From Rhizophagus irregularis (lineage: Eukaryota), in assembly GCF_026210795.1 (NCBI RefSeq), contig NC_089435.1, forward strand, positions 4,092,001-4,156,000: a stretch of 64,000 bases of DNA, given 5' to 3'. Below the pieces are notes generated by a model. That model was not told where the DNA came from. It saw only the letters and a list, made by a program, of their open reading frames with translations, and ran no database searches. The first letter of the stretch is position 1. Every line of letters starts with the position of its first letter. The position numbers were made by a program, and so were the translations under genes. Of the stretch, positions 581 to 62,335 are shown one piece after another.

Positions 581-1018
581 ATGTCTTTCAACCAGGTATA
601 CACTGAGCTACTAGTTATATTACCAGCTTCTGTAATACATGAGGCATGGATTCGTCTCACAACAAGGAAGCGCAGTCCACTATCTGTGTTCGATGCCAGC
701 GGAGTAAATTCCATGGTAGAGTTATTTTTGAAACATGAAGTAGAAAGATACCAGAAAAAATTAGCACGTCAGAGACTAACTGTTAAACAGACATATATGC
801 CAAGAAACAGAATGACACAAGACATGATTAGTAAAGAGGTTTCCATACTTCAGAAGCACTTGCTTGAATATAATAAGGTTACTTTTGGCCGATTCATGCA
901 GAACCTTACTAAAGAACATGAGAAATTGATCAAGACAAATCATCAGATACGACATGAAATTGATACCATGAAGAAGCAAGTACGAGAAATAGAAAAAAAA
1001 CTTGCTTCCATGTCGTAG
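581..1018 (+). CDS. Hypothetical protein with C-terminal coiled coil, 145 aa (outer element)
   Basis: Intact intronless ORF that converges on the 3' end of the Gag-PR-ZnF frame (stop at 1025-1027). Confidence 0.6.
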   Translation: MSFNQVYTELLVILPASVIHEAWIRLTTRKRSPLSVFDASGVNSMVELFLKHEVERYQKKLARQRLTVKQTYMPRNRMTQDMISKEVSILQKHLLEYNKVTFGRFMQNLTKEHEKLIKTNHQIRHEIDTMKKQVREIEKKLASMS

Positions 1019-1359
1019 TTCCCATTATTCATCAAGAAATAGACGAATGGGTACTGTTGCTTCACTCAAATTTTGTGTGGATTGCGCATGGGATTTTTTT
1101 ACTGTGCATAGACTTTGCATGGACTTTGCATGGGAAATTTTAACTGCACATGGGCTTTGCATGGGCTTTCACAGGTCGAACAGATGTCATTGTCGCAAAA
1201 TTTGCCTGGAATTTTTCTGGCAAATTGAGAATTATCCCGGTAAATTGAGGTAAATTGTGTTACAATTTTGGGATAATGGAGGACTTACAATTTGGCAAAT
1301 TTTGTCAAAATGGCGGAATTCCTACAGAATTCCTAATTCAAATGTTGAGAAATTTTTCA

Positions 1360-1837
1360 GTAAATTATCATTAAATTGTGGGAAATTTTAGGCAAATTTT
1401 TAGTAATGTTATGCAAACGAAGTGTAAATTGTGGTGAATTTAGTTAAATTTTTAGTAATTTTATGCAAATGTAATGTAAATTGTGGTGAATTTTAGGCAA
1501 ATTTTTAGTAATTTTATGCAAACGAAGTGCAAATTGTGGTGAATTTAGTTAAATTTTTAGTAATGTTATGTAAACAAAGTGCAAATTGTGGTGAATTTAG
1601 TTAAATTTTTAGTAATTATATGTAAACGTAATGTAAATTGTGGTGAATTTAGTTAAATTTTTAGTAATGCTATGCAAACGAAGTGCAAATTGTGGTGAAT
1701 TTAGTTAAAATTTTAGTAATGTTATGTAAACAAAGTGCAAATTGTGGTGAATTTAGTTAAATTTTTAGTAATTATATGTAAACGTAATGTAAATTGTGGT
1801 GAATTTAGTTAAATTTTTAGTAATGCTATGCAAACGA
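1360..1837. repeat. Subterminal tandem repeat (~58-bp unit), resumes at 5518-~5930
   Basis: Unit AAATTGTGGTGAATTTAGTTAAATTTTTAGTAATGTTATGCAAACGAAGTGC occurs about 8 times and is interrupted by the 1838-5517 element. Confidence 0.9.
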
Positions 1838-2228
1838 CATCAGCAAGTTTGAAAAGTGTTGATTCACACCAGTATACGCGTTAATCAACACCAGCTAGTT
1901 GTTCAACGCGTTTTACAATATTAATCAACACCCGTATACTAGAGTATATTAACGCATAATGCTAATATACGCGTTGTTCAACTCTAATGTGTAGTTCAAC
2001 ACATTATGCATTGTTGTTCAACGCGCTGTATATTAACACTTAATTAAATTAAATTATATTTATTTTTACTCACCTTAGGAATTGAACCAAACACCTCAAC
2101 TTATACTATTAATTATCTCACGATCTAACCACTGTACTATTTAATTTAAGTATATATTATATATATTAAAATTAATATTTAAAAAAAAATTATTTCAGCA
2201 TTGCGTAATGTACTCTATATCATGTGTA

Positions 2229-2320
2229 TCACGTGATAATGGATTATTAATAATTACCGCTGCGGACTGCGGTATGGCGAAAAAAAAATTAAGCTTTTTT
2301 TAGCAAGCTTAATTTTTTTT
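2229..2320 (+). promoter_or_regulatory. Conserved leader/promoter module (CACGTG, two hairpins) upstream of a micro-exon array
   Basis: TCACGTGA...TAATTACCGCTGCGGACTGCGGTAT...AAAAAAAATTAAGCTTTTTTTAGCAAGCTTAATTTTTTTT, then a pyrimidine-rich tract. A near-identical module sits on the minus strand at 8556-8658. Confidence 0.55.
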
Positions 2321-2699
2321 CGCTTCTCTTTCACTTTCGTTCTATTTCTCCTTTCACTTTCGTCCCATTTTCCCCCTCTCACTTTCACTTTCACTTTCTT
2401 CCCATTTTCCCCTTTTACTTTCCCCTTTCACTTTCGTCCTGTTTCTCCTTCCACTTCGTCCCGTTTTCCCTTCATTTTCTTCCCGTTTTCTCCTTTCTCT
2501 CTCGTTTCATTTAGTTCCCTTCACTTTTCTTTCCATTCTTCCTTCGTTTTCCCCTTTCCCTTTTCGTTCCTCCTTTTCTCTTTCGTTCTGCCCTTCCAAC
2601 TCCCGTAAAATGAGTTCCATTCAACGGAAATGTAGATAATTTGATAAATTCCGTAATATAAGGTTATTAATTCCAGAGATATAAGCCTTTTACAGAAAA

Positions 2700-5070
2700 A
2701 CTTTTGGTGAGTTTCGCAACGAAACATTGCGAAACTATTTTTCATTTTCTAACGAAACGTTGTTTAACGCGTTTAAATAATTTTTTTAAATTTATTTAAT
2801 CGAACGTTATCTAACGTTCGATTATTTATTTTCTTTTATTTTTTTAATCGAACGTTGAAAAACGTTCGAAATATAATTTTTTTAATTTCTTTAATCAGAG
2901 CGTTGGCTAGCGTTCCGATTATTTTTTATTTTATTTTTTAACGAAACGTTGAAAAGCGTTTCATTTATTCTTTTTTTAACTTCTTTAATCAGAGCGTTGG
3001 ATTAAGCGTTCGATTTATTTTTTCTTGTTTTAAGCAAAGCGTTTTTAACGTTAGATTGTCTTTTTTTTCATTCCTTTTAATCCGGGCGTTGAAAAAGCGT
3101 TCGATTTACATTTTTTCTTTTTTAAGAAGCGTTTTTAGCGTTTCGTTAATAACTTTTTTTTCTTTTTTTTTAATCGAACGCTGGGCTAACGCTCCGATTT
3201 TTTTATTTTTTATTCTTTTTTTAATCGTAAACGCTTTTAAGCTGTTAATAACTTTTTTTCATTTTAAATCTGAACGCTACTAACGCTCCGATTATTTTTT
3301 TATTCATTTTTTTTAATCGAACGCTTGAAAAACGCTCCAATTAATTATTTTTTTTATTTTTTCTTTTTAATCGAACGCTAACGCTCCGATTAATTTTTTA
3401 TTTCATTTTTTTAACGAAACGCTAAAAAACGCTTTCAAATATTCTTTTTTTAAATTTTTTTAATTGGAACGCTAGCTAACGCTCCAATTTTTTTATTTCA
3501 TTTTTTAACGAAACGCTTATTAACGTTCGTAATATAATTTTTTTAATTTTTTTCAATCGGAACGCTAACGCTCCGATTTTTTATTACATTTTTTAACGAA
3601 ACGCTTATTAACGTTTCGTAATTTTTTTTTCATTTTTTTTTCCTTTCTTCTTTTAGGTCAGCGGGTGGGCTTCAGGTTCGAAGAACGGAAAACCAAGATT
3701 CGTAAGATAAGTACGAATCTTGGTTTAATTTTTTTTTCTTTTTTTTTTTAATATTATTAATGAACGGTTACTAATAACCGTTTTTTTCTTTTTTTAGGTT
3801 TTGGGTGGGCTTCCAAAGATCAGAAAACCCAAAGATTCATAAGTAAGAATCTTTATATATATATTTTTTTGTTTTTTGATTAATGAACGGTTACTAATAA
3901 CCGATCTTCTTTTTATTTTTTTAGGTTCGGTGGGCTTCCAAAGAACGAAAACCCAAAGATTCGTAAGTACGAATCTATATTTTTTTTTGTTTTTTTAATT
4001 TTATTAATGAACGGTTACTAATAACCGTTCTTTTCATTTTTTTAGGTTCGGGTAGCTTATGGTCTTTGGAAAAAGTGGAACCAAGTTTCGTATTACGAAT
4101 CTTGGTTTTATTTATTTTTTTTTTTAATATTATTATGAACGGTTACTAATAACCGTTCTTTTTTTTGTTTAGGTTCGGGTGGTTTTCCAAAAATCAGAGG
4201 AACCAAGATTCGTAAGTATTCCGAATCTTGGTTTTAATTTTTTTCTTTTTTAAAAAAAATACTATGAACGGTTACTAATAACCGTTCTTTTCTTTGATTT
4301 TTATAGGTTCGGGTGATTTCCGACGAATGGATGAACCAAGATTCGTAAGGTATGAATACGAATCTTGGTTTTATTATTTATTTTTTATTATTATTTTGGA
4401 ACGGTTTACTAACCGTTCTTGTATTTTTTTTTATAGGTTTGGGTGGGCTTCCGAAGAACGGAAAACCTAAAGATTCGTAAGGAATCTTTACTTTTTTTTT
4501 ATTTTTTTAATTTTTTTATTATTATGAACAGTTTACTAACCGTTCTTGTATTTTTTTTTTAGAAGTTCGGGTGGGTTTCGGACAAATGAAGGAACCAAGA
4601 TTCGTAAGTACGAGTACGAATCTTGGTTTTTGTTTTTTTATTATTATTTTGGAACGGTTTACTAACCGTTCTTTTTTTTTATAGGTTCGGGTGGGCTTCC
4701 GAGTTCGGAATAATGGAAAAAAAAACCAAAGATTCGTATTATGATACGAATCTTGGGTTTTTTTTTAATTTGTTTTTTTTATCTCTTTTTTATAGGTATC
4801 CGGTTCCTTCAGCGTTGGACTTTTAATTAGATTTCTCAACGTTAGACGCGGCGTTGCTGTAGATTAGCATTTTGGAATGAATTGGTAAGTTTCGAATAAA
4901 ACTTACATTTTTTTATTTTATTTTTTTTATTTTTTTTTAAATTTCTCTTTTCTTTTTGTAGTCCTCGGTCAGATTTTTAGAATAAGATTGTGTAAGTTTC
5001 GTTAACGAAACTTAATTTTTGTGTTTTTTTTATTTGAAACCTTATCTTGTTATGGTTGTATCACCAGGGG
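2700..5070 (+). ncRNA. Putative spliced non-coding transcript: tandem micro-exon/structured-intron array
   Basis: About 9 units of TTTAG|GTTCGGGTGGGCTTCC...CCAAGATTC|GTAAG...TACGAATCTTGG...GAACGGTTACTAATAACCGTTC...TTTAG. Exon lengths vary (~38-55 nt) and do not preserve frame. Confidence 0.5.
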
Positions 5071-6059
5071 CGCTTTGTCAACGGAAATTTAGTACATTGA
5101 TCGCTTAAAAATCCGCGGCAATCTAATTATAACAAGAGGAATTGATTTTTCATTAGATAATTTGATAATTTAATGTAATTTGTATTGTAACTGTATTTAT
5201 AAATAAATTTACAATTAATGAAATGTTAATAATATACAATAATATATATATTAATAAATTAATACTATTAAATTAACTACATTGCTATACGCGTTTTTAA
5301 TATCAATATACACGTTTTTATACATTATATACACGTTATTAAACTAGTGTTATTTTACTGTATGTTGTTTTACACATAAAACACTGTTGCACTACGCGGT
5401 TTTCAACATTTTTAAGTGGTGTTGATTGACAAAGGGTTCGTATCTCTACACTTTTTGGTGTTGAGCAACACATGGCGTTTTTCAACACTTTATACGCCTG
5501 TTTAAAACTTGCTGATGGAAGTGCAAATTGTGGTAAATTTAGTTAAATTTTTAGTAATGTTATGCAAACGTAATGCAAATAGTGGTAAATTGTAGTGTAT
5601 TTTTAGTAATATTATGTAAATTGTTGAAAATTTAGGTAAATTTTTCAGCAATGTTGTGCAAACGTAATACAAATTGTGGAAAATTGTGGTGAATTTTGCA
5701 TTTTTTTGGTAAATGTTAGCTAGATTTTTGAATAATTTAGTGAAATTTAGGATAATTTCAGACAATTGAGTGAAAATGTTTTACCGATTTTGGACAATTG
5801 AGTGTAAACGATATAAATGCAACATTTTTGAAGATAATTTAGTGAAATTTTGCAATAATTTCAGATAATTGAGTGAAATTTTCGGACAATTGAGCGAAAT
5901 TTAGTAATAATTTTAAACAATTTAGTGTAAACGCCATGACAATTTAAAACACTGATTTATAATCTATTATAATTTTATTTATTAATAAATGCACAATTAT
6001 TATTATTTAACGATAATCTATATTTATCAGATATCCGATAATCTATGGATAATCCGCAC

Positions 6060-8300
6060 CAGTGCCAAAATAGAAAACCTAAAAAAGAAAAAAAACGAAA
6101 CATTAATATACGTTTCGTAAAAAAAAATAAATTAAAGAAACATTTCGAAGTTATATACCTTCGAAATGTTGAATTCCATACGTCCAATAAGCCGCTGAAC
6201 CTAAAAAAGAAAAAAAATGAAACATTAATTTATGTTTCATGAAAAAAATTAAATTAAAGAAACATTTCGAAGTTATATACCTTCGAAATGTTGAATTCCA
6301 TACGTCCAATAAGCCACTGAACCTAAAAAAGAAAAAAAACGAAACATTAATTTATGTTTCGTGAAAAAAATTAAATTAAAGAAACATTTTGAAGTTATAT
6401 ACCTTCAAAATGTTGAATTCCATACGTCCAATGAGCTGCTGAACCTAAAAAAGAAAAAAACGAAACATTAATAACCGTTTCGTTGAAAAAAATAAAAATA
6501 AAAAATATTTCAAAGTATACCTTCGAAATATTGAATTCCGGTCTGTTCAATGGCTGCTGAACCTAAAAAAAAAAAAATGAAGCGTTAATAAACACTTCGT
6601 TGAAAAATAAAATAAAAAAATTTCGAAGTATACCTTCGAAATATTCCCTTTCGTTTTCCCTTTCCCTTTCGTTCTCACCCTTCCCTTTCATCTTCTCTTT
6701 CGTTTTCTCTTTTCCTTTACATTTTTCACCTTCCCCTTTCATTTTTCACATTCCCCTTTCATTTTTTACCTTTCCCTTTCGTTCTCATCTTTCTCTTTCC
6801 TTTCGTTCTCACCTTTCCCTTTCATTCCTTTAACCTATAAAAAAACAAAAAATAAATGAAACTTAAATAATGTTTCGTTATATAATAAAAGAACACCCCA
6901 CCAAATGCCCAGAGTTTCCTTTGTCTCCTCCAATTACTTGGATGGATTCTTCAATTCATTCACCTTTGCCAAGCACTTTCTTTTTGAACTTCTTAACCAT
7001 TTTAGTTCCAATTTGGCAGAAGTGGATGTTAAGGTGATCTATAAAAAAAATTGAAATGTTAGTTAACGTTTCGTTAAGAAATAAAGAAAAAAATATAAAC
7101 AAAAATAAAATTCCCTTTATTACCTTTCACCCAAAGTCCGGTTCGTGAATTCGTTCCGGCGTTCCTACAAAAAGTAAAGGAAAGAAACGTTTAATATCGT
7201 TTCTTTAAAAAAAAACAATAAATTAAGTTTCGCAACGATTCGTTGCGAAACTCACCAGGTCGTTTCATCCAAACGTCCAGAACCTACAAAAAGAAGGAAA
7301 GAAACGTTAGTTAACGTTTCTTTTAATAAAAAAAAAATAAAAAATTAAGTATCGCAATGTAACATTGCGAAACTTACCAGTTCGTTTCCATCATTCTAAC
7401 GTCCGGAACCTACAAAAAGTAAAAAAGAAACGTTAATATAAACGTTTCTTATAATAAAAAAATAAAAATTAAGTTTCGCAATGTAACATTGCGAAACTTA
7501 CCATCATCCTAACGTCCGGAACCTACAAAAAGTAAAATAAAGAAACGTTAGTTAACGTTTCTTAAAAAGAAATAAATAAAAATAAAGTTTTGCAACACAA
7601 TGTTGCGAAACTCACCAGTTCATTTCGAACTCATCATCCAAACGTCCGGCGTTCCTACAAAAAGAAAAAGGAAACTTAGAAACGTTTCCTTACAAAAAAA
7701 AGAAAAAAATTTTTTTCTTAAAAGTTTCGAAGCGTACAACAACACGCTTCGAAACTTACCAATTTGCCTTCCAAAGTCGAATATCGAAAAATCTCTACAA
7801 AAAAAAATAGGAAACGTTAGAAACGTTTCCTTACAAAAAATTAAAAAAAAAATAATTTTTTTTAAAAAGTTTCAAAGCGAAACGCTTCGAAACTTACCCT
7901 TTCGGTTCCTTGCTTCCCGAAGTCGAATACCGAAAGACCTACACAAAAAAAGAAAGAAAGGAAACGTTAGAAAAGTTTCCTAAAGAAATTAAAAATTTTT
8001 AAAAAGTTTCGAAGCATATGCTTCGAAACTTACCATTTCGAATCCCAAAGAAGCATGCCGAAAGACCTACACAAAAAAAAAATAAGAAACGTTAGATACG
8101 TTTCCTAAAGAAATTAAAAAAAAAACACTGTTTCGAAGCGAACTCGCTTCGAAACTTACCCTTAATTTCCTAAATTTCCAAAATCGAATATCGAGATCTA
8201 AAAAAAGAGAGTATAGGAAGCGTTAGAAACGTTTCCTAAAAGAAATTAAAAAAATATATTAAAAGTTTCGAAGCGAACGCTTCGAAACTTACCATTTCGT
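6060..8300 (-). ncRNA. Putative spliced non-coding transcript: second micro-exon/structured-intron array
   Basis: On the minus strand, repeated TTTTAG or TGTAG | short exon | GTAAG, GTGAG or GTATA, with hairpins at the 5' splice site and AAGAAACGTT-AACT-AACGTTTCTT branch-point hairpins; roughly 15 units. Confidence 0.5.
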
Positions 8301-8555
8301 TGGAATTTTCTGGGAAGGGAAAGGGGAAGGGGAGAGAAAGAGGGGAAAAGGGCGAAGGGAAGGGAAATGAAACGAAAAGGGAGGAAGAGAACGAAAGGTA
8401 AAGGGAAAATGGAGGGGAGAAAAGGGGGAAATAAAACGAAAAGGGAGGAGGAGAAAGGGAAAGGGGAAATGGAACAAAAGGGAGGGGGAGAACGAAAGGG
8501 AAAGGAAAGGGAACGAAAGGGAAAGGGGAAAGGGAAGAAAGAAAGAGGACGTGAG

Positions 8556-8658
8556 AAAAAAAATTAAGCTTTTGCTAAAAAAAGCTTAATTTTTTTTTTC
8601 GTTATACCGCAGCTGAAGCTGCGGTAATTATTAAGTAATATCACGTGACGCACGTGAT
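8556..8658 (-). promoter_or_regulatory. Second copy of the conserved leader/promoter module
   Basis: Reverse complement reads TCACGTGCGTCACGTGA...TAATTACCGCAGCTTCAGCTGCGGTATAACG-A-run-TTAAGCTTTTTTTAGCAAAAGCTTAATTTTTTTT, then a pyrimidine tract. Confidence 0.55.
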
Positions 8659-9361
8659 ATATAATTTTATATAAATAGGGGCTTTCCCCCGCCCCAGAAT
8701 TTTTTTTTTTATTTTAATAATTTTAAATAGATGTATATATATGCTTATATATACATATATATATATCTATTAACTAATACTTTACGAAAAGCCCCTCTTC
8801 TGTAAACAGGTAGAGGTCATAAAGTACCTATAGGGGGAGAGCCATTGCTGCTCCCTCCGCCTGTTTATAGTGACAAAAGAGGGAGTCTTCAGTAGTAAGG
8901 TTTAGTATTAAATTACATCACAACACATCGTGTTATATTAACAATGTGTTTAATGTTAAATAATGCGTTTAAAATATAAATATTATAAATTTAATAATGT
9001 ACGTAATTAAATAAATAAAAATTATCATCAATTTTTAATGTAATTAAGTGTAATGCTACGTTATCCAATGTAATTGTAGTATTTTTTTTGTGTTTTTTAG
9101 TGCAATTCCGCGTTTTTTAGTGCAATTCCGCATTTTCTAGCATAATGTTACATTTTCCAGTATAACGCGAAATTTTTTAAAAAAAAAATGATAATTGTGG
9201 TATTTTTTAGTGTAATGCTACATTGTCTAGTGCAATTGTGGTATTTTTTAGTGCAATTCTGAATTTTCTAGCATAATGTTACATTTTCCAGCATAACACG
9301 AAATTTTCTAAAAAATATGATAATTGTGGTACTTTTTAGTGTAATGCTACATTGTCTAGTG

Positions 9362-9605
9362 TAAGGTTGCTTGTCGAAACCTAGGGGTTTAAGCAAGATG
9401 GCGTTTCGCCAAAAAGCGAAATTCTGCCGAAACTATATTAAAGTTATATTAAAAAACTGGCGAAACTTTGGAGAATGGCGAAACTGCTGAAACTTATTAT
9501 AAACGCCGAAACTGCCGAAACTCTGTCGAAACTATAATAAATCTATAGTAAAATTTTGACGAAATTAATCGTAGGATTTTGAAGAGGTTTAGACAAGCAA
9601 CTTTA
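9362..9605 (+). mobile_element. hAT-type MITE (244 bp), copy 1
   Basis: TIRs TAAGGTTGCTTGTC...GACAAGCAACTTTA; 8-bp TSD GTCTAGTG (9354-9361 / 9606-9613). Confidence 0.9.
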
Positions 9606-9776
9606 GTCTAGTGTAATTGTGGTATTTTTTAGTGCAATGCCGCATAATCTAGTATAGTGCTACATTTTTTAGTATAATTTAATGTAATGTGGAATTTTCC
9701 AAAAAATGAGATAATTGTGATGCTTTTTAGTGTAATTTGGTGAAATGCTACATTTTCCAGTGTAATGCTATATTAC

Positions 9777-10020
9777 TAAAGTTGCTTGTCTAAACCTCTT
9801 CAAAATCCTACGATTAATTTCGTCAAAATTTTACTATAGATTTATTATAGTTTCGGCAGAATTTCGGCAGTTTTGGCGTTTATAATAAGTTTCAGCAGTT
9901 TCGCCATTCTCCAAAGTTTCGCCAGTTTTTTAATATAACTTTAATATAGTTTCGGCAGAATTTCACTTTTTGGCGAAATGCCATCTTGCCTAAACCCCTA
10001 GGTTTCGGCAAGCAACCTTA
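9777..10020 (-). mobile_element. hAT-type MITE (244 bp), copy 2 in inverted orientation
   Basis: Reverse complement of 9362-9605 with few substitutions; 8-bp TSD TATATTAC (9769-9776 / 10021-10028). Confidence 0.9.
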
Positions 10021-10810
10021 TATATTACTGAGCATTTTCAAAAAAAAATGTAAAATCTTAACATTCTGACGAAAATGAAACATTTTGACCAAAAAAACGT
10101 AAAATTTGCTGAAAATATGCAACATTTGACAGAAAATATAGAATTTTCATAAAAAATACACCATTTGCAAGAAAATCGGAATATTTGACAAAATTTGAAT
10201 TTAATTGACAATGTTATAACAATTTTATGAAATGTTGTTACAATGATATCACATTGAAGATAAAATGTGGCATTTTCATAAAAATGCACCATTTGCAAGA
10301 AAATTGGAACATTTGACAAAAAAAAAGCAAAATTTGATTTTAATTGACAATGTTATAACAATTTTATTAAATGTTATTACATTTGAGGTAAAATGTGAAA
10401 TTTTCATAAAAATGCACCATTTGCAAGAAAATTGGAACATTTAACAAAAAAAAAGCAAAATTTGATTTTAATGACAATGTTATAACAATGTTACGAAATG
10501 TTACAAAAATGTTACATTTGAGATATAATGTAGCATTTTCTCAAAATTTCATAAGATTTGCTAAATCGGACAATGTTGTAACAATGCTATTCCAAAAAAT
10601 TGCTCAGCGTAATGCAGCATTTTCCACAATTTCCCACCATTTTCCAGGAAAATGGGGAATTTGCATTTTTTGAATTTTGGACAATGGCGCCCCTTCGACC
10701 TGTGTTTGCATGGGACTTTTTTACTGCACATGGATTTTTTCGTAAAAAATGTTGTCTAAGATTAGAAGGATATGGGAATTCCTTCCTACAATGCTGACAG
10801 GTATGATCAG

Positions 10811-13783
10811 CTAGTTTTTTTTTATAGGCTGGCTATCTACTGCAAAAACATTACGTTGTGCCTTATGTACAGAGAGAGGAATTGAGACAACCTGTCCATT
10901 TACATTTGCTTTGAACTCACCCTTTACTACAGGTTCCCAACCTGCACGATACTGCCACTGTGTACCAAGTATTAGCAATGATTTGTCCTTACCATTTCGA
11001 TCCTTCTCGGTAGGTATAACAGAGAATTCGTCTGATATAGTGACTGTATTTGTACCTTCACCGATAGTTATGGGAATTTCATTGATAGTGCCAAGAGTTT
11101 TGGTTGATCCAGCTACACCATTAAGTGCATGTATATTCTTTTGATCTATTTTGAGACCTAGATGCTTAGCTACATTTTTAGAGATTACTGAAGAGTCAGA
11201 CCCTGTATCGATCATAGCATAGGGTATGCATACATTTTTGATTTTACAGGAAATGGTCGCTACATCATTGGGATCATCTAACTGGAGAAAGTTGATTTCT
11301 AAGGGTCTTGGCCAGTATAGGTTTTTCTGCTGATAGGCACGTATTGCATGGTTCAGTGTTTTGTCTTCTTTCTGTTCTACTTCAGATGGTACATCTGCAG
11401 GAGGAGTTGGTAATAGTGAAGTTGCTGTATTTACAGCATGAGCTAGAGGAGATAAAATGTCTTGCATATTTGCTGAAAGAACATCCCAGAGTTTCTTTCT
11501 TTCACTAACTGGATAGTCACTAACAAAATGGTTTAAAAGCGGGTCTTTCAGATTCTTATATGCTTGATTGGTATAAGCATTAATCTGTAGGAGGATTTCT
11601 TTAGGACATTGTGCTGCTAGTGAAGCAATTATAGACTTCAGTGCTGCATGAAAGACTTCATCAGTTTTCTTGAGAATAGGTTCTCTTTTAGATTTGGAAG
11701 TACGGGATTTCTTCCCTTTGTTTTTTACTGAAACTCCACGTTGACGAGTTTTTTTTACACTAAAGCAATTCTGAGGTTCATCCTCCTCCTCCTCTTCTTC
11801 CTTCAGTTAACTCTTCCTCAGTTTCTTCATCAGTTTACATCGCTTTCGATTCTTCGTAGTCAACTATGTGAGTATTGTTAACTTTCTTAGCAGCACTCGT
11901 GGAGCAGGCTTGTTCTTGGAATGACCTGTTCTACCGCAGTTTGAGCAATGACGTTTAGGAGAAGATTTGGTTGTCTTTGTCACCTTTTAACCTGACCAGT
12001 TCCAAAGTGATCTTTTCTTAGATGTTGTGTTTGTCCACCTAACTTTCTGGTAAGATCACTCTCAATGAAAGTATGTATTGCTACGGGATTTGTTATGTCG
12101 CCAGTATAGCCAAGACGTCCTGCTATATCTGCAAGCTTTTCTAATGCAGTTCTATTCTGTGGTTGTTCTACTATAGTGGTTGGATTTTTTATTTTTCGCT
12201 TCATCTACCATTTATTACGCAACTCATTAAAGAAAGCATCAAGATCGCGGAGCGGCAACTACGCTGCGTTTAAAAGCGTCGAGGCAAATGATTATATAGA
12301 TAAGGTAAAATTTCGGCGTATACTTGTCCTTTGTCTAATGATCGAATTCTTTTTGCATATGTATCTGGTGTATCTATAGGAGAAAATGATTCGTTCATGA
12401 GTGCTATTATAGCACCTTGATTTGTTCCAACCGTCGCATCTCATATTTTCCTTGCAGCCAGTTTAGAAAGCTCTGGTTCTGTATTAATAGCAGCATTGCC
12501 ATTATATGGATTATTTACTGGAACAGGGAATAAATCTACCAGACATTTTATTTTTCATGACATTGCTCCTCATAGCGACATTAAAACCAGCAAAAGCTAG
12601 TGGACGAGCCATCTGCATTGACAGCTCAAGCTTTTGGTAATAAGAGTCTGGCGAACTCTTGTCCATCGTAAAATGGTGCTTGTGCAAGACCTGGTGATAT
12701 AGTATGCATGACATCTTGTATTGTAGCCATGTTTGGAGGATTGTTTTGTAACGCTAATATTTGTTGTTGTAAATTTAAAATATTTTGGGCTTGTGCTTGC
12801 ACTTAGGTCTGTGAAATCCTATATTGTCTTTGCCAGTTTTGTGCCTGACGTATACAACCTGCATGCCTTCTTCTCCAACGTTCTGTATCAGCATTATAGC
12901 GTAACATCAGCCTATGTGCATTCCTTCTATGCTCAGCTATCTGATTCTGTTGGTTTGTTATCTGATTCTGTTGGTTTGCCAGTTGTGCATCTTTACGTCT
13001 ATTCAGAAAACGTATACCTAGATTGGCTATTTGTATTCCTGCAATACGTGCTTGATTCTGTTGTGCAACAGTTTCCCAGTGTCTACGAGCATTTCTCTCA
13101 TATGTAAAATTATCACGTACTCTTATTAAGTCTTGATTAAGAGCATTTGTACGATCTAAAGATTCTCCAAGTAATGTCTGCAATCCTTCTATCTGATTTA
13201 GTTGGTCTACACCAATTTCTTGCATTAAAGCAGCTTGACGAATAATTTCATCAAGACTTTGAGTGGTAGCATTAAAGACATCATCTATGTCTTGTGGAAT
13301 TGGAATCCTATTCCGATCAAAAAATAGTCGAATCTCAGATACACAATCTGCAACTGCCCGTCGGCGGTCTAGTATTCTTAGAATAGGATTGAATAATTCA
13401 TTATCTTCATCCATTTCTATCTTTCCTTTACATAAAGATAATTCTTGAATGCGTTTTTTGAGTTTATCTACTATGTATTCAAGCTGAATGATACGTTCAT
13501 CCTGGGTAACAAGTGCCTCTTCCTTTAACTCTAAGTGATCTCGATACTTTCCAAGTTCAACTAAAGTGGACTGACACTCTGCTTTTATCTGATCGATCTC
13601 ATCCTCACGTGAAACAAGATTTTTTTCAAGATAGAAGATATATCGTTCACATGCCTCTATCTCCTTTGTGAGTTTACGGATTTTCTCCTTATTGGAAATA
13701 TTATTTGTTTCCTCTTGAACTAGCTGTTTGCGCAAATCAAAGTTGCTATTTAACAAATCAAGATATGCCTGTTCAACTCCCAT
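10811..13783 (-). pseudogene. Coiled-coil / Gag-like / CCHC knuckle / retropepsin polyprotein of the outer element (frameshifted)
   Basis: N-terminal coiled coil homologous to 50466-51323 (RRNAHRL..RYN..TER.RRR); knuckle CSNCGRTGH at ~11920-11950; acidic tract; protease motifs AMIDTGSDSS and LILGTQW; several frameshifts between 12800 and 11800. Confidence 0.85.
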
Positions 13784-20172: not shown

Positions 20173-20254
20173 GATTGAAAAAATGAAAAAAAAAGAGAAA
20201 TTTAACAGATAGAAGAGAAGAAAGGAGTTTAACGGATGAATTGAGAGAGAAAAG

Positions 20255-20917
20255 AAAGGGGTTGGTTAATGGATAAAGGAGAGTTTGAAGGATGCCTGTG
20301 AAACAATAGCATGAGTTTTTTTTCTGTTAGTGGACTTGCATTGCGTTGCAAAATTTTTTTTTTTTTTTTTGAAAGGATTTGTTAAGGGGTGTGAAAAAGA
20401 AATAGAAAAGACATGAACTTGCATATATTTCTAAAAAAAAAAAAAATCTGGGAACATTTGCAAATCCAGTAGAAGAAAAAAGGTATAAAAAAAAAAAATC
20501 TGGGAACATTTGCAAATCCAGTAGAAGAAAAAAGGCATGAAATGAAAAATGAGCAAAACGCTCGAGAGACTAAATCTGCAGACAAAAAAGATGAGGACCA
20601 AGCCTAAACGGATAGATTGAAAGGGGTTGGTTAATGGATAAAGGAGAGTTTGAAGGATGCTTGTGAAACAATAGCATGAGTTTTTTTCTGTTAGTGGACT
20701 CGCATTGCGTTGCAAATTTTTTTTTTGAAAAGGATTTTGTTAAGGGGTGTGAAAAAGAAAATAGAAAAGACATGAACTTGCATATATTTCTAAAAAAAAA
20801 AAAAAAAAAAATCTGGGAACATTTGCAAATCCAGTAGAAGAAAAAAGGCATGAAATGAAAAATGAGCAAGACGCTCGAGAGACTAAATCTGCAGACAAAA
20901 AAGATGAGGACCAAGCC
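20255..20917. repeat. Direct duplication (~360 bp x2)
   Basis: GAAAGGGGTTGGTTAATGGATAAAGGAGAG...GATGAGGACCAAGCCTA occurs at ~20255 and ~20620. Confidence 0.85.
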
Positions 20918-21047
20918 TACAGAAGATGAACAGAAACAATGCATATTTATATATTTTATTGTTTGTAAATCTTTCTATATACTGTTGTTTGTTAAAAAAA
21001 ATTATTTGATCATTATGCGTAATGATCGACTACACAACAAGTTTAAT

Positions 21048-25141: not shown

Positions 25142-26575
25142 TAAAGTTTATTATACTTAACGACAGCGATACTAATATCTTGTATAACGTTACTGATCTA
25201 AAATATGACTATTACTTTTCCTTTTTGATAAGGTAAGTTTTATGGATTTCCGTAAAGTTACGGTTGAATGCGTAAATTGTTCCATTTTTATTGGTTAGAC
25301 TGTTCATGTCTGATCGGTTACACCAACTAATAAATTCGTGATCAAAAAATGCTGATCAAACAACCCTGACTAATATATAATGAGTTGGAATTTTATTTCA
25401 CTCAGGAGTGGTATCATTAGATTTTTTATAATGTGTATGCATGCTTATGTTTTCGAAATTATATAAATTTTTTATCGTACAAAGAAAAACTTTAATGTTT
25501 ATTGTTTCCATGTAAGATACGACTGACATAATTATTACTACTAAGTATGCGAAGGTTTCTGCAGTTTCTGCGAATTCTACTTTAATGACTTGTACGAAAA
25601 ATTGCTTGGTTTAGTATAATGAGTAAGTATCGAAATCATGCGAATTTCTATCCATAATAATAAAACTCATGTTCACGTGTTTATGTTTTATTTCCATATA
25701 TGATATAACAATGATATAATTATTAAATATTCAAAGGTTCAAGGTTCCTGCGGATTCTACTTTAATGACTTGTCGAAAAATTGCTTGGTTTAGTATAATG
25801 AGTAAGTATCGAAATCATGCGGTTCTATCCATAATAATAACAAGGAAAAAACTCATGTTCCATATAAAGTGATATAATTATCGAATATTCGAAGGTTTCT
25901 GCGGTTACTGCTTTAATGACTGGTACGCCTGGTTTTAGAATAATGAGTAAGTAATCGAAATTATCCTTATGTTCACGTGCGTGTTTTTATTTCCTCAACT
26001 GACATAATTATTACTAAGAAAGTTTCTGCGGTTCTACTTTAATGACTGGTACGAAAAAATTACCTGGTTTAGAATAATGAGTAAGTAATCGAAATTATGT
26101 GAATTTATCCTTATGTTCACGTGCATTTGGTTTTATTTCCTCAACTGACATAATTATTACTAAGAAAGTTTCTTTGCCTGGTTTAGAATAATGAGTAATT
26201 ATGCCTATGTTCACGTGCATGTGTTTTTATTTCCTCGACTGACATAATTATTACTAAGAAAGTTTCTTTTCCTGGTTTAGAATAATGAGTAATTATGCGA
26301 ATTTATCCTTATGTTCATGTGTATATGCTTTTATTTCCTCAACTGACATAATTATTACTAAGAGAGTTTCTGCGGTTCTGCTTAATGACTGGTACGAAAA
26401 TTTGCATGATGTAATTATTGAATATTCGAAAGTTTCTGTTAATGACTGGTACGAAAAATTGCTTGATTTGGGTTTAAAGAGTTTTTTTTTTCATAAATAA
26501 TGGTCAATTTTTTTCCTTCAGAAATATTTTTTTTTCTTAAATTGTAAGAAATCCCACTTTTTCAAAAGTATCATT

Positions 26576-27851: not shown

Positions 27852-29415
27852 GGTGAATTTTATATGCATAAGATAATTATATATATGTTTATTTGTTTTA
27901 ATAAATTTATTATTTTTTTTTATTGGTTTGGTAGGACTGGTGAATATATTAATAATATAACAAATATTACGAATTAGTAATTGATATGTACAATTTCAAA
28001 AAAAAAAATGCCCCCACTCTTCTAAATTTTATAAATTACATTTATTTGATAATCATTTAAAAGAGCATCTCCTTCAAAAAACAAATCAATAAATTTTACG
28101 TTTTTGCGATTAATTTGTATATAAAATTTTATTAATTTGAGTTTTCTCATTTGGCTGATAACTGTTAAACAAATAAAAGAATTTTTATACATGAAACACA
28201 AAAAATTATTTTGAATTTGATCGTAATTTTGTTAAAATTCATAGTTACAATTGATTCGTAAATTGTTCTATTTTTTATTGGTTAGACTGAAGTTCATTGT
28301 CTGATCGGTCACACCAACTAATATCAAAAATGCTGATCAAACAACCCTGACTAATATATAATGAGTTTGAATTTTATTTCACTCAGGAGTGGTATCATTA
28401 GATTTTTTATTCTGTGTATGCATGCTTATGTTCGAAATTATACAAATTTTTTATCGTGCAAAGAAAAACTTTAATGTTTATTTGTTTCCATGTAAGATAC
28501 GACTGACATAATTATTACTACTAAGTATGCGAAGGTTTCTGCAGTTCCTGCGAATTCTACTTTAATGACTTGTACGAAAAATTGCTTGGTTTAGTATAAT
28601 GAGTAAGTATCGAAATCATGCGAATTTCTATCCATAATAATAAAACTCATGTTCACGTGTTTATGTTTTATTTCCATATATGATATAACAATGATATAAT
28701 TATTAAATATTCGAAGGTTCAAGGTTCCTGCGGATTCTACTTTAATGACTTGTACGAAAAATTGCTTGGTTTAGTATAATGAGTAAGTATCGAAATCATG
28801 CGGTTCTATCCATAATAATAACAAGGAAAAAACTCATGTTCACGCGTAATTATTTATTTTTATATAAAGTGATATAATTATTGAATATTCGAAGGTTTCT
28901 GCGGTTACTGCTTTAATGACTGGTACGCCTGGTTTAGAATAATGAGTAAGTAATCGGAATTATCCTTATGTTCACGTGCGTGTTTTTATTTCCTCAACTG
29001 ACATAATTATTACTAAGAAAGTTTTTTTGCTTGGTTTAGAATAATGAGTAATTATGCGAATTGTACGAAAAAATTTCCTGGTTTAGAATAATGAGTAATT
29101 ATGCGAATTGTACGAAAAAATTTCCTGGTTTAGAATAATGAGTAATTATGCGATTTATCCTTATGTTCACGCGCATTTGTTTTTATTTCCTCGACTGACA
29201 TAATTATTACTAAGAAAGTTTCTGCGGTTCTGCTTAATGACTGGTACGAAAATTTGCATGATGTAATTATTGAGTATTCGAAAGTTTCTGTTAATGACTA
29301 GTACGAAAAATTGTTAAAGAGTTTTTTTTTTTCATAAATAATGGTCAATTTTTTTTCTTCAGAAATATTTTTTTTTCTTAAATTGTAAGAAATCCCATTT
29401 TTCAAAAGTATCATT

Positions 29416-31369: not shown

Positions 31370-33030
31370 TACTTTCAATATAGTAGAAGTATGGAAGTTA
31401 TTTATATTTCATAATTTCATTAATATTCGTAGGTTTACGACTATTTCATAATATTAATAATTGTTCATGGAAAGTTTTGCGTACAATATAATGGTAAAGG
31501 TATGGAAAGTATTTATACTCCATAATTTAACTATTTTATACAATATTAATAATTATAACTGTTGGTCTAACTTTTGAACTTATAAAGTAAAAATAAAATT
31601 AACGCGTGCTCTCAATGTAGTAGTGTAGAAGGAATGGAAGGTATTTGTACTTTGTAATTTCGTTAATGTGTTTACGTCTTTTTTATAAAAAATATTAATA
31701 ATCACGCATAATGAACTGTTGGTTTAACTTTTTGAACTTGTAGAAATAAAGTTAACGCGTGCTTTCAATGTAGTAGTGTAGAAGGAATGGAAGGTATTTG
31801 TACTTTATAATTTCGTTAATGTTCGTATATTTACGTCTTTTTTATAAAATATTAATAATCACATAAAATGACAACTGTTGGCCCAATTATTGAACTTGAA
31901 TATTCGTTGATGCAGAAATGAATTTAACGCTCTCAACGTAGTAGTGTAGAAGGAATGGAAGGTATGTACTTCACGATTTCGTTAATGTTCGTATGTTTAC
32001 GTCTTTTTTTATAAAAAATATTAATAATCACGCATATTGAAACTGTTGGTTTAACTTTTTGAACTTGTAGAAATAAAGTTAACGCGTGCTCTCAACGTAA
32101 TAGTGTAGAAGAGATGGAAGGTATGATCACAACTGTTGGTCCAACTTTTTGAACTTGTAATTGTTTGTTTGACGTAGTAGTGTAGAAGGAATGGAAGGTA
32201 TGTACTTCACGATTTCGTTAATGTTCGTATGTTTACGTCTTTTTTATAAAAAATATTAATAATCACGCATATTGAAACTGTTAGTTTAACTTTTTGAACT
32301 TATAGAAATAAAGTTAACGCGTGCTCTTAACGTAATAGTGTAGAAGGGATAGAAGGTATGTATTCCTTAATTTCGTTAATGTTCGTATGTTTACGACTTT
32401 TTAATAATAATCACAACTGTTTGGTCCAACTTTTTGAACTTGCAATGTTTGTTTGATGTAGAGATGAATTTAACGCTCTCAACGTAGTAGTGTAGAAGGA
32501 ATGGAAGGTATGTACTTCACGATTTCGTTAATGTTCGTATGTTTACGTCTTTTTTATAAAAAATATTAATAATTACGCATATTGAAACTGTTGGTTTAAC
32601 CTTTTGAACTTGTAGAAATAAAGTTAACGCGTGCTCCCAACGTAATAGTGTAGAAGGGATGGAAGGTATGTATTCCTTAATTTCGTTAATGTTCGTATGT
32701 TTACAACTTTTTAATAATAATCACAACTGTTTGGTCTAACTTTTTGAACTTGTAATGTTTGTTTGATGTAGAGATGAATTTAACGCATGTTCTCAACGTA
32801 ATAGTGTAGAAGGAGTGGAAGGTATGTACCTCACAATTTCGTTAATGTTCGTAAGTTTACTTTTTTTTTTATAAAAAATATTAATAATCACGCATAATGA
32901 TAACTGTTGGTCTAACTTTTGATCTTGTAATATTCGTTGATGCAGAAATGAATTTAACGCATGCTATCAACATAGCAGTGTAAAAGGACTGAAGGTATGT
33001 ACTTCATAATTTCGTTAATGTTCGTACGAC
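31370..33030 (+). repeat. Tandem exon-intron-like repeat (~150-bp unit, ~10 copies)
   Basis: GAACTTGTAG|AAATAAAGTTAACGCGTGCTCTCAACGTAATAGTGTAGAAGGGATGGAAG|GTATGT repeated. Confidence 0.8.
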
Positions 33031-43339: not shown

Positions 43340-44410
43340 ATTCTAATGCTTTCTTTTCTTTCTTTTTAGGTTCTTCGGCTTTCTTGGTTCTGCGGTCAAG
43401 GTATTTTCATTATTTTTCGTTTATTTGTTTCTTTGTTGCTCCATTTCGTTTCTAATGCTTTCTTTTTTTTCTTTTCAGGTTCTCCGGCTCTTTTCGGTTC
43501 TGTGGTCATTGGTCAAGGTATTTTCATTTTTTTTCGGTTGTTTTATTTCTTCGTTTCTCCCTTTCGTTTTAATTTTGTTTCTAATAATGCTTTCTTTTCT
43601 TTCTTTTTAGGTTCTTCGGCTCTCTCGGGTTTGCGATCAAAGTATTTTCTTTTTTTTATTTGTTTGTTTCTTTGTTGCTCTATTTGTTTACTTTTGTTCC
43701 TAAACTAATGCTTTCTTTTTTTTCGTTTTAGGGTTCTTCGGCTCTTTTCGGTTCTGCAGTTAAGGTATTTTCATTTTTTTTCATTCTTCATTTCTCTATT
43801 TCGTTTTAATTTTATTTCTAATGCTTTCTTTTTTTTTCTTTTAAGGTTCTTCGACTCTTTTTTGGTTCAGTCAAGGTATTTTCATTTTTTCGTTTGTTTC
43901 TCTATTTCATTTTAATTATGTCTCTAATGCTTTCTTTTCTTTCTTTTTAGGTTCTTCGGCTCTCTCAGTTCTGCGGTCAAGGTATTTTTATTATTTTTCA
44001 TTTGTTTGTTTCTTCGTTGCTCCATTTTGTTTCTAATGCTTTCTTTTTTTTTCTTTTTAGGTTCTTCGGCTCTGATGGGTATTATCAAGTACACACGATG
44101 GTTGCAATGAGATATTAATCAAAAATCGATTATATGTTGTTTCCCTACTAATATAATCTCATTTCGACTTTCGGCCACAAAATTTATCGTATGTCTTTTT
44201 TTCATTTTGCTTCTTGCATTTTGTTTCCTACTAACTTTATTTCGTTTTTTTAGGTCCTTTGGCTCTTTCGGTTTTGCAATTAAGGTATGTCCAGCACTAC
44301 ATGGCCGTTTCTTCTTATTTTTTTATTTCATTCTTATATTTCGTTTCTTACATTTTGTATTTCGTTCTTTTTAGGTCTTTCGGTTCTTCTCTGCAACTAC
44401 TAAGGTATGT
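43340..44410 (+). repeat. Micro-exon/intron tandem array (left side of Sola2)
   Basis: CTAATGCTTTC-T-rich-TTTAG|GTTCTTCGGCTCT...TGCGGTCAAG|GTATTT; about 9 units with ~31-nt exons. Confidence 0.8.
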
Positions 44411-45172
44411 TTTTTATTTTTTTTTGTTTTTGTTTATTTATTACATGTAATTTCCGTTCCCTACTAACTTTATTTCTTCTTTTATTTTATGGGTTTGGTT
44501 TTCACTTGGTCACCTGTTACTTTCGTATTTTTTTTGTTTCCACTTTGTTTTTTCCGTTCCTTTCTTTTTTTTCGTTCCCATTTCGTCTTTTTCCGTTCCC
44601 ATTTCGTCTTTTTCATTCCTTTACACTACTCTTCGTTCCTTCCATTTTTATTCCATTCCCACTTCATCTTTTTCATTCCTTTACACTACCTTTCGTTATT
44701 TTCATTTTTTTTTTCCATTCCCACTTCATCTTTTTCATTTCTTTACACTACCCTTTGTTCCTTTCATTTTTTTATTCCCCTTTACTACATTTCGTCCCCC
44801 TTCATTCTTTTCATTTTTTTTTTCATTCCCACTTGTTCTTTTTCGTTCCTTTCGTTTCTTTCACTCCCCCTTTGCTCCATTTCGTTCCTCCTTCGCTCCC
44901 CCTTCGTTTCTTTCATTCCCTTTCACTCTCCCTATTTTTTTCATTCACCCTCATTCTTTTTTCCTTTTTCATTCACTTATTCTCTTTTATTTATCGTTGC
45001 GACTCATTTTTTTTATAATTCCTATCAAAAAATTTAAAAAATTTACAGGGGATTTATATGCAAATTACGAAGTGAGAAATATTGAATTTTATTTAATAAA
45101 TTAATCATGAGTGAAATCACCCTTAGGTGATTTCACCCTGAATGCAAATTAGCAACAGTCTTAAATATCTAT

Positions 45173-47499: not shown

Positions 47500-47989
47500 T
47501 AGTAAGAAGGATAAGAAGAATGAAAAAAAAAATTAATGCAAATTCTATTTATTTAAATAAAATACCTCCAAAAAAAAAGATTTATTGTATAAAAACATTA
47601 AATATACAGGATTGGTAACATAATACAACACTTAAATTGATGAGATGTCAACGCCATTAGCCATATATAGTCTTATGAAAATGATAAGATAACGATGATA
47701 ACGATAGATAACGATATATAACAAATAAATTTCCCAAAATTTGCAACATAATACCAAAAAAAGATTTTAGACTAATACAGAAATTTCATTATTTTCGTTG
47801 AAAATTCACATTACAAATTTCCCGTAGTGCAAAATACCAAAAAAATTATCATTTTTGTTAAAATAATACACTACACTGATGATAATAAGGCTAATAATGA
47901 TAATAAACCGAATTATGAATAATAATAACAAAAACCAATGTTGGCAAAATAAAACGAACTGTAAATGAAATGAAATGAAAAATAATTAG

Positions 47990-48870
47990 ATATGAAGAAC
48001 CTAAAATATAAAGCAAAGACAAAATAAATAAAATGGAACAAATAAACGAAAAAAAAATGAAAATACCTTGACTGCAGAATCAAAAGAGCCGAAGAACCTA
48101 AAAAGAAAGAAAAGAAAGCATTAGAAACAAAATTAAACCGAAATGGAGGAACGAAGAAACAAAAAAATGAAATAAATACTTTGACTGCAGAATCGAAAAG
48201 AGCCGAAGAACCTAAAAAGAAAAAAAAAGAAAGCATTAGTTTAGGAACAAAAGTAAACAAAATAGAGCAACGAAGAAACAAACAAATAAAAAAAAAGAAA
48301 ATACTTTGATCGCAAACCCGAGAGAGCCGAAGAACCTAAAAAGAAAAGAAAGCATTAGAAACAAAATTAAAATGAAATGGAGAAACGAAGAAACAAACAA
48401 ACGAAAAAAATGAAAATACCTTGACTGCAGAACCGAAAAGAGCCGAAGAACCTAAAAAGAAAAAAAAGAAAGCATTAGTTTAGGAACAAAGTAAAACAAA
48501 ATAGAGCAACGAAGAAACAAACAAATGAAAAAAAAGAAAATACTTTGATCACAAATCCGAGAGAGCCGAAGAACCTAAAAAGAAAGAAAAGAAAGCATTA
48601 TTAAAACGAAATGGAGCAACGAAGAAACAAACAAATGAAAAAAAAAGGAAAATACCTTGATCACAAACTCGAGAGAGCCGAAGAACCTAAAAAAAAAGAA
48701 AAAGAAAGCATTATTAAAACGAAATTGAACAACAAAGAAATAAACAAATGAAAAAAAAGGAAAATACCTTGATCGCAAATCCGGGAGAGCCGAAGAACCT
48801 AAAATAAAAGAAAAGAAGCATTAGAATAAATAAAACGAAATGGGAAACAAGCAAATGAATATACCTTGAC
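47990..48870 (-). repeat. Micro-exon/intron tandem array (right side of Sola2; inverted copy of 43340-44070)
   Basis: Repeated ATACCTTGACTGCAGAA...GAGCCGAAGAACCTAAAA...GAAAGCATTAG; for example, 48235-48345 is a near-perfect reverse complement of 43600-43710. Confidence 0.85.
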
Positions 48871-60920: not shown

Positions 60921-62335
60921 TACATGTGACTTATCAATTCAATTTACCGATCGATAATCAATTTTTATTAAAAAAAATGGGTTATAAAAACCGTTATTCA
61001 TTTTATTTAAAAAACTTTTTTTTTTGTCCAAACAGTCTTATTATACCATTGAATTTTTTATTTTATTTTTTTTTTAGGTACAGCTTTTGGACTTGAAATT
61101 CGTAAAATGGTAAGTTATAGAGAAAAGTGTTGTATTAATAATTCTTTTAATATAAGAACATTAACTTCTTTTCTTTTCTTTTTTGTAGGAACGAATCTTT
61201 CAGCACATGGCTTTTTGAGGTAATGTGAGGAAAGGGTGGAGTTTTCAATACAAGAACTACAAGAACATTAACTAGCGTTCTTTTCTTTTCTTTTTTTGTA
61301 AGAACGGACTGGCTTCTAATGTTTGAAGGTAATCAAAATAATTTTTTTTTTATAATTATTTAACGAAACGTTACTAACATTTTGATTCTTTTTTTTTTTA
61401 GATTTGGAAAGTCCAGATTTGGAATGTGTGCAAGTATATGTTGACGGGAATTGGAGAGTAATTTTTTTAATATATAAAAGAAACGTACTAACGTTTCTAC
61501 TATTTTCTTTAGGTTGCCAGACTCATTAGACGAACTTGGAGATAACTAGGTTTTGGTTGCTTGTTGGACATTCTGAAGCAGTAATTATGTATGAAAGGTA
61601 GGAAGGGTAAAATTTAATGATAAAGTAAAATAGTAGACTTGATAATTGCTCATAATAGAAGTCTGAATAACGGAAAGGGTTAGACAGAAATGAAATTAAT
61701 TAACAAATAAATGAAGTTAAAAAAAATGTGTGCCGCGTATGTACTGGTAATTATAATTTATTAATTAAATTAGATTTTAAATTAAATTAAATCAATAAAT
61801 AAATAAAAATTGAATAAATAAATAAATAAAAAATAAATAAAAATATTCTACATGATTATATTAATTATAAATACAATTATACAAATTATACGATAGTAAA
61901 ACAAAATAGTAGTTCGAGCCAAATTATTCCGAGCCAAAATTTATTAAAGTTCAGTTCAGCTCATTTGTTTCAAGTTAAGAATTATTATAGCTTGGCTTAT
62001 ATCAAGCTGAGCCATAGGAAATTTGTGGCTCAGCTCGGCTTGGCTCAGTACATTTTTTCAAGCCAAGCTCAAGCCAGACCTTAACTTGGCTCAAACCTTA
62101 GAACCCCATACGCAAAGCTTTAGATAGTACAAATAGTGTAACTATAAATATTAGTCAATCTAATCAAATTTATTATATGATAGAAGTGAATAATTTATAT
62201 AATTATATAAAATTTATTAGTAGGTTAAATCACTTAGGTTAAATCACCCCAGGTTAAAATTAATTTTATACATTTAAATAATACATTTATTAAACTTTAT
62301 TATATTTTCAGTATATAATTTTTCTTACTGGAATA

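Follow-up and report, generated by a model that had tools for sequence, protein, structure and literature searches.

Layout of the locus

The window, that is, the whole 64,000-nt stretch of Rhizophagus irregularis DNA analysed here (contig NC_089435.1, positions 4,092,001 to 4,156,000), is rich in transposon genes, including those of the Plavaka, polB, integrase, DUF7869 and BED-finger types. One protein that it encodes shares 98% identity with a protein of R. irregularis. On its minus strand, from position 8292 to 6079, 16 GT-AG intron units of 71–129 nt were called by hand, with exons of mostly 21–42 nt between them. Spliceosomal (U2-type) signals are present (GT donor, YTRAY branch, polypyrimidine tract and YAG), a clean branch motif being absent in 4 of the 16 introns, and in relatives of these introns the distance from branch to acceptor is mostly 23–27 nt. 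A first-pass annotation had placed introns of spliceosomal type on this strand, and the 16 units with their consensus-type signals bear it out. The units that it quoted are also found: the unit with its donor in the loop lies at 6170-6139 and 6292-6261, the GTGAG unit begins at 7255, and the branch hairpin with an AACT loop occurs near 7563-7540 and 7323-7300.

Read along the minus strand, the array is preceded by a head (8555..8661) with a CACGTG box, an ACCGC..GCGGT palindrome and an AAGCTT/poly-T palindrome, defined by pattern search and by alignment to 2216-2330; to judge from its sequence, it is likely a promoter or 5′ region. A pyrimidine-rich tract resembling a first exon follows (8293..8554, minus strand). 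The next block (7165..8292, minus strand) consists of nine introns, here called type A, whose donor sits at a stem base (8292-8198, 8159-8067, 8033-7939, 7897-7795, 7759-7655, 7615-7523, 7501-7410, 7377-7284 and 7255-7165), with exons of 21–41 nt. Two degenerate minus-strand units (6835..7123) come next, one at 7123-7039 and one ending at 6835 with an uncertain donor, possibly at 6963; their branch parts are still matched by the covariance model described below. They lead into a 201-nt purine-rich exon (6634..6834, minus strand) that is roughly complementary to the pyrimidine tract, as inverted repeats I1-I5 indicate; at about 70–80% complementarity, the two could pair across the type A block. 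The array closes with five type B introns (6079..6633, minus strand: 6633-6563, 6520-6445, 6402-6323, 6280-6201 and 6158-6079), in which the donor lies in a loop and the exon end in the stem, with four 42-nt exons between them.

The joined exons contain stops in all three frames, and only the four 42-nt exons keep a frame. Among 104 distinct internal exons of related metagenome loci, lengths modulo 3 are distributed 37/30/37 (p 0.62), without frame bias. On these two grounds a protein-coding repeat gene was rejected, and the exons look non-coding. Searches of Rfam with window positions 1000-11000 and six metagenome loci returned no family at the gathering score, and a tRNA scan across the window found none.

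The array lies within a non-autonomous element at 1170..10704, bounded by an 11-bp perfect terminal inverted repeat (CACAGGTCGAA at 1170..1180 on the plus strand, its partner at 10694..10704 on the minus strand) and flanked on both sides by TTT. In the text of PMC12730594 covered here, EnSpm ends are given as CAC..GTG with a 3-bp duplication and PlavakaB ends as CATCA..TGATG with a 2–3 bp duplication. The termini of the outer element, 5′-CAC..GTG-3′ with an inverted repeat, are those of EnSpm/CACTA (CMCT) elements; its TTT duplication sits within an 11-nt repeat and in a T-run, where 2 and 3 bp cannot be distinguished with certainty, and no empty site was seen. The list of open reading frames holds no transposase-like frame within 1170-10704. 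By these features the array is cargo of a transposase-less element with EnSpm/CACTA-type ends, and the element is also packed with other tandem repeats. A second element with PlavakaB-type ends (1838..5517; 13-bp inverted repeat, CATCA..TGATG termini, GA duplication) is inserted in a 52-nt subterminal repeat of the outer element and holds a plus-strand sister array. A MITE with 246-bp inverted arms (97%) sits in the right subterminal repeats (9362..10020), and a CACTGG-type motif resembling an end lies directly after the last acceptor (6054..6064, minus strand), a possible further nested end for which a partner was not found. The first-pass annotation had overlooked this transposon setting; the array that it described is real, and its interpretation holds in part. 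We regard the locus as very probably a transposon-borne, non-coding intron array.

The minus-strand array had also been called independent, a claim that its head refutes. Positions 8661-8315 are 72% identical to 2216-2562 over 362 nt (E 1.7e-39), the latter stretch preceding the plus-strand array at 2.7–4.9 kb, and the shared head comprises the CACGTG box, the two palindromes and the pyrimidine tract. The two arrays are therefore not independent, and a separate origin of the minus-strand one was rejected. The sister unit (2216..4950, plus strand) runs from head and pyrimidine tract through 17 tandem branch-type hairpins, 8 of which retain YTAAC, to hairpin introns. The 17 hairpins (2800-3630) lie within a single long intron at 2800-3657 (plus strand), with acceptors absent between them.

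Related arrays elsewhere

Several other arrays were seen in the window. A third, degenerate hairpin-intron array at 61000-61550 (plus strand) lies in divergent orientation to a gene of BED-finger (hAT-like) type at roughly 60.0–60.3 kb. Arrays of hairpin-less introns and micro-exons at 43340-44420 (plus) and 47950-48870 (minus) face each other across a DUF7869 gene, and further arrays of splice-signal repeats were noted by eye around the Plavaka gene, at 20200-20930 (minus), 25500-26400 (plus), 28500-29300 (plus) and 31500-32900 (plus).

A donor-plus-acceptor pattern retrieved 87 stretches, corresponding to 86 loci, from metagenome contigs; a stricter pattern gave 0 matches in viral contigs. 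A covariance model, as the first-pass annotation had proposed, was built from the branch stem and acceptor. It gave 30 matches in the window, all inside three arrays, and 245 matches across 55 of the 86 metagenome loci; no long open reading frame was seen flanking the matches in the loci. The intron ends of the array do not pair, the stems are local, and single introns have no terminal inverted repeats or target-site duplications of their own; on this ground, and on the confinement of all 30 window matches to three arrays, an introner was rejected. The caller, hairpin, arm-pairing and exon counts exclude five low-GC loci judged unrelated (L004, L038, L047, L051 and L073) as well as 17 loci with a GC content of at least 38%.

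An end of the form CAC(A/T)GGTC(G/A)A occurs in 10 of 69 low-GC loci, and a CATCAG end in one. In each of two sets of loci (L016/L019/L039 and L008/L020/L070), which represent related families with one end per contig, one end stands at three different flanks, which indicates that the array cargo moves with the element. The layout of L019 is like that of the window array: CACGTG box, pyrimidine tract, acceptor-only repeats, hairpin introns, subterminal repeats and end. Arrays of hairpin-less introns also exist, and acceptor or branch modules form arrays on their own, so that the two-hairpin form is not required for an array.

Tet_JBP genes occur near two arrays, one above the Pfam cut-off (L063:711-2189) and one below it (L041:1128-2555). 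Both dioxygenase genes sit in a transposon-like context on contigs resembling those of AM fungi; the text of PMC12730594 covered here reports such genes in transposon relatives only for lineages of Basidiomycota and Ascomycota.

Outside the window, the sense strand of acceptor-only arrays carries a tRNA-like insert of about 60 nt, in 21 copies from 17 loci (L006, L008, L011, L016, L018, L019, L021, L025, L026, L028, L039, L041, L052, L055, L060, L070 and L075; for example L041:4871-4935, plus strand). A 6-bp acceptor stem, a short D-like loop, an anticodon-like arm and a 6-bp arm with a TTC(G/A)ATT loop are possible, the cloverleaf being the lowest-energy fold in some copies only; ARAGORN did not call the insert in the five loci scanned. 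It brings to mind mascRNA or the head of a SINE. The array of L021 contains, in antisense orientation, a tRNA-Phe whose anticodon, AAA, is unusual (3120-3190, plus strand).

Predicted folding

The first-pass annotation had described a design of two hairpins per intron, and folding upholds it: 14 of the 16 introns fold with z of −4.5 or lower against dinucleotide shuffles, the remaining two being the degenerate units 7123-7039 and 6963-6835 (z −0.9 each). Control values were a median z of −0.86 for 15 candidate ordinary introns of the window's transposon genes, which are heuristic calls made without RNA support at a GC content of 20% or less, and −0.17 for 13 introns of the hairpin-less array at 43–49 kb. 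A caller blind to structure found 13 units in array 8292-6079, with both stems in 12 and a wrong donor assigned to the 13th; it found both stems in 8/9 units of the plus-strand array, 0/13 of the array at 43–49 kb and 212/353 in the metagenome loci.

Each well-folded intron is predicted to have one stem over the donor and another over the branch point. Donor bases +3 to +6 of type A introns are buried (predicted unpaired probability ≤ 0.07 in 8 of 9 introns), and the branch A is predicted to be paired in 11 of 15 introns of the array. Alignment indicates that types A and B are a single hairpin with the core TTTCG..CGAAA, in which the donor has shifted from the stem base to the loop. This core and the GAAACG/CGTTTC core are both kept at the sequence level. 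The earlier suggestion that structure and not sequence is conserved among different unit types is not supported, given the conserved cores and the two donor types being one hairpin with a moved donor.

In other copies the stems remain in register with the branch signal, as the first-pass annotation would have them: the branch A is base 1 or 2 of the 3′ arm in 129 of 173 distinct hairpins. When hairpins were defined by a strand-symmetric motif, 14 edge hairpins being left out, 133 of 146 distinct ones were followed by an acceptor on one strand (a count inflated by the retrieval of the metagenome loci through their splice signals), none had one on each strand, and 94 had branch, acceptor and donor. 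At 57 of 161 donor-type palindromes, a donor is absent in either geometry. Within the type A introns (7165-8292) the donor arm TAAGTTTCG and the branch arm TAACGTTTCG are akin in sequence, which makes cross-pairing of the two stems possible. Of 166 distinct introns of type A, 11 have a 3′ arm that reads ACTTAC and is fully antisense to the donor.

Sequence change in the stems

A table of pairs from stems chosen by their pairing would be circular, and covariation was judged instead from alignments and permutation. In the donor-stem alignment 91% of cells pair, both sides have changed at 7 of 13 pairs, and the covariation score was reached by 0 of 500 shuffles. In the branch stem 85% pair and both sides have changed at 4 of 10 pairs; its score was likewise reached by 0 of 500 shuffles, though shuffles yield as many pairs changed on both sides. 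The branch arm pairs better with the upstream sequence of its own intron than with that of others in 297 of 298 distinct introns (6.78 versus 5.97 ± 0.05 of 9 positions), and 37 distinct donor-stem inserts pair better with their own partners (2.35 versus 1.65 ± 0.12 of 3). None of these comparisons takes account of relatedness. The arms thus covary above permutation in the donor stem, the branch stem and the arm-pairing comparison.

The double change at 6383..6414 (minus strand) that the first-pass annotation had singled out as compensatory does alter both arms of a donor stem. It consists of a C>T and a G>A, two CpG transitions of the kind expected from methyl-CpG decay, found in 1 of 13 rows at that pair, and is thus weak evidence when taken alone. 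Such decay does occur in the family, since the differences seen most often in reads are C>T and G>A (42 and 43 places in X21). A wobble bias was sought in both stems and was absent: single CpG substitutions gave G-U versus A-C at 11:11 in the branch stem and 14:9 (p 0.40) in the donor stem, so that no wobble bias points to selection on the RNA strand.

The observed/expected ratio of CpG is 2.08 in the minus-strand array and 2.77 in the sister array (GpC 0.78 and 1.07, respectively); the values for three transposon gene regions are 0.37, 0.49 and 0.57, and that for the Plavaka gene is 0.97. TTCG/CGAA or AACG/CGTT hold 83 of the 98 CpGs of the array. According to the sections of PMC8647823 covered here, transposon loci of R. 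irregularis are mostly CG-methylated, and against this background the excess likely counts toward a CpG-rich unit that would escape silencing.

Expression

Four of 24 listed read runs were compared with positions 5900-8700, 24–30% of each raw run being sampled. A joint between 6198 and 6401 with CT..AC ends, equivalent to GT-AG on the minus strand, was found in two polyA runs (5 and 4 reads), and a back-joint of 42 nt, as expected of two adjacent 42-nt exons, in three runs (10, 2 and 4 reads). Both are marked 'between: not known'; the listing for the X5 contigs, possibly DNA, includes neither of them. Among the matches listed over 5900-8700, no joint corresponds to an intron of type A. Intron-retaining reads outnumber the joints (26 and 29, 13 and 14, and 15 and 20 at three places), which DNA carry-over could explain. 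The reads are mostly less than 99% alike, lie only partly on the stretch and have mates in about equal directions, so that the evidence applies to the family and not to the expression or strand of this copy. The first-pass annotation had called for spliced reads on the minus strand; the polyA reads contain joints that fit the 42-nt (type B) exons at family level, probably from paralogues of this copy.

Discussion

These arrays are real, probably spliceable at least in part and widespread in this fungal group. We tentatively suggest, at somewhat less than even confidence, that the array acts as a decoy gene, itself non-coding, which draws splicing factors to the transcript of its element and would thereby help the element to stay unmethylated and active. 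Introns shield transcripts from silencing in other organisms. Transcription would start at the shared head, and the units would have multiplied through duplication of an exon together with its intron. The stems may slow splicing, type A by burying donor positions +3 to +6 and both types by pairing the branch A, while the type B hairpin would display its donor in a loop. Many transcripts would then remain unspliced and bound by spliceosomes, and this load on the element's transcript could help it to avoid methylation. In favour of this reading stand the ends and their recurrence at different flanks, the exons free of frame bias, the family-level joints beside commoner intron-containing reads, the CpG excess and the Tet_JBP genes near arrays. 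The absent wobble excess, the CpG decay in the family, the arrays that do without the two-hairpin form, the lack of a listed type A joint and the 57 donor-type palindromes that have no donor count against it. A wider version, which we consider doubtful, is that DNA transposons of AM fungi have evolved a modular splicing device, common to CACTA, Plavaka and hAT-like elements, in which arrays of near-perfect introns, with donor and branch sites gated by hairpins, keep the spliceosome on a non-coding transcript, so that the element would pass for a host gene and escape silencing.

The main rival, itself rather unlikely in our estimate, is that the array is a neutral by-product, in which an intron-exon unit from the untranslated part of a transposon transcript was amplified in tandem, template switching at replication perfected its short inverted repeats, and the spliceosome uses the sites although the stems are dispensable. 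Template switching would yield perfect variable inserts that lengthen stems, as the inserts seen here do. The lack of wobble bias, the crowding of the same element by other tandem repeats, and the 17-fold amplification of branch-type hairpins, lacking acceptors and decaying to 8 of 17 with YTAAC, all fit this account, and shared descent of the units would explain the registration of the stems. It accommodates less readily the placement of stems at both splice signals across several sequence families and in three donor geometries, the CpG excess, and the retention of splice signals by diverged units (the 133 of 146 above), though those loci were fetched by a donor-acceptor pattern.

The stems might instead act in self-restraint, stalling the spliceosome so that the stalled transcript feeds RNAi and yields small RNAs against the element's own family, which we hold to be improbable. 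In Cryptococcus, poor introns reportedly expose the transposon. The predicted pairing of donor bases +3 to +6 and of the branch A and the many unspliced reads would suit such stalling. So would the siRNA triggered by stalled spliceosomes in Cryptococcus (Dumesic 2013, as cited in PMC6643885), and the 41% of R. irregularis small-RNA loci that fall in unannotated regions, according to PMC8647823 as far as covered here. Against it, the splice signals are near consensus and not weak, and the CpG richness speaks against long-term targeting by methylation.

At a slightly lower level of belief we place a DNA docking array, in which the CpG palindromes would be bound by a putative anti-silencing protein that a transposon encodes, either VANC-like or a partner of TET/JBP, and the introns would play no part. 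The concentration of CpGs in two motifs, the adjacency of Tet_JBP genes to arrays in two loci, and the tandem, non-coding repeats that VANC targets (PMC5735166, in the text covered here) agree with it. However, the spacing of palindrome cores or half-sites varies widely while the inserts stay self-complementary and paired, which a hairpin fits better than a fixed duplex site, and docking leaves the strict one-strand splice signals without explanation. There is a similarly slim chance that the array is the multi-intron 5′ leader, with stems tuning expression, of an accessory gene whose coding part this copy lost, as a short coding-like multi-exon stretch between array and end in L021 and the running of the array at 47.9–48.9 kb into the DUF7869 gene might suggest, but in L016, L019 and L039 no gene stands between the array and the terminal repeat, arrays also stand opposite or divergent to genes, and the L021 peptide has no usable match in the protein atlas. 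The decoy proposal and its rivals overlap in part.

If arrays do protect transposons through splicing, this would be a new counter-defence, and the arrays would form a natural library of structured splice sites. They would presumably also mislead gene callers into spurious multi-exon orphan genes. Unclassified repeats make up about 24–30% of the R. irregularis genome (PMC8647823 and PMC11075540, in the sections covered here), and one abundant part of them now gains an anatomy and a search model.

Relation to known systems

The arrays are apparently undescribed so far. A literature search found no description of them; curated repeat libraries, such as those accompanying PMC11075540 and PMC10234402 or Repbase, may already contain the elements. 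The word intron is absent from the main text of two R. irregularis transposon papers, and the word Rhizophagus from that of PMC12730594.

In ends, duplications, subterminal repeats and TET/JBP genes near relatives, the elements here resemble the non-autonomous EnSpm/CACTA and PlavakaB elements of the CMCT group treated in PMC12730594. They differ in their cargo, a non-coding array of hairpin introns, which the text of that paper covered here does not mention. With fungal ILEs (PMC3609843) and introners (PMC11282704), as described in the sections covered here, the array shares multi-copy spliceosomal introns, canonical signals and stable predicted structure. In contrast to these, its units are duplicated together with exons, in tandem and within a larger transposon; its introns lack terminal inverted repeats and target-site duplications of their own, and none was seen breaking a long open reading frame. 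The targets of VANC in Arabidopsis VANDAL elements (PMC5735166, as far as covered here) are likewise rapidly evolving tandem repeats, located in non-coding regions of DNA transposons and tied to escape from methylation, but they are DNA repeats bound by protein, whereas the repeats here are complete introns. The stalled-spliceosome trigger of RNAi in Cryptococcus, in the form cited in PMC6643885, offers a last parallel, in that introns of transposons tie splicing to genome defence. Unlike that case, the signals of the array are near consensus and masked by predicted stems, in a region rich in CpG.
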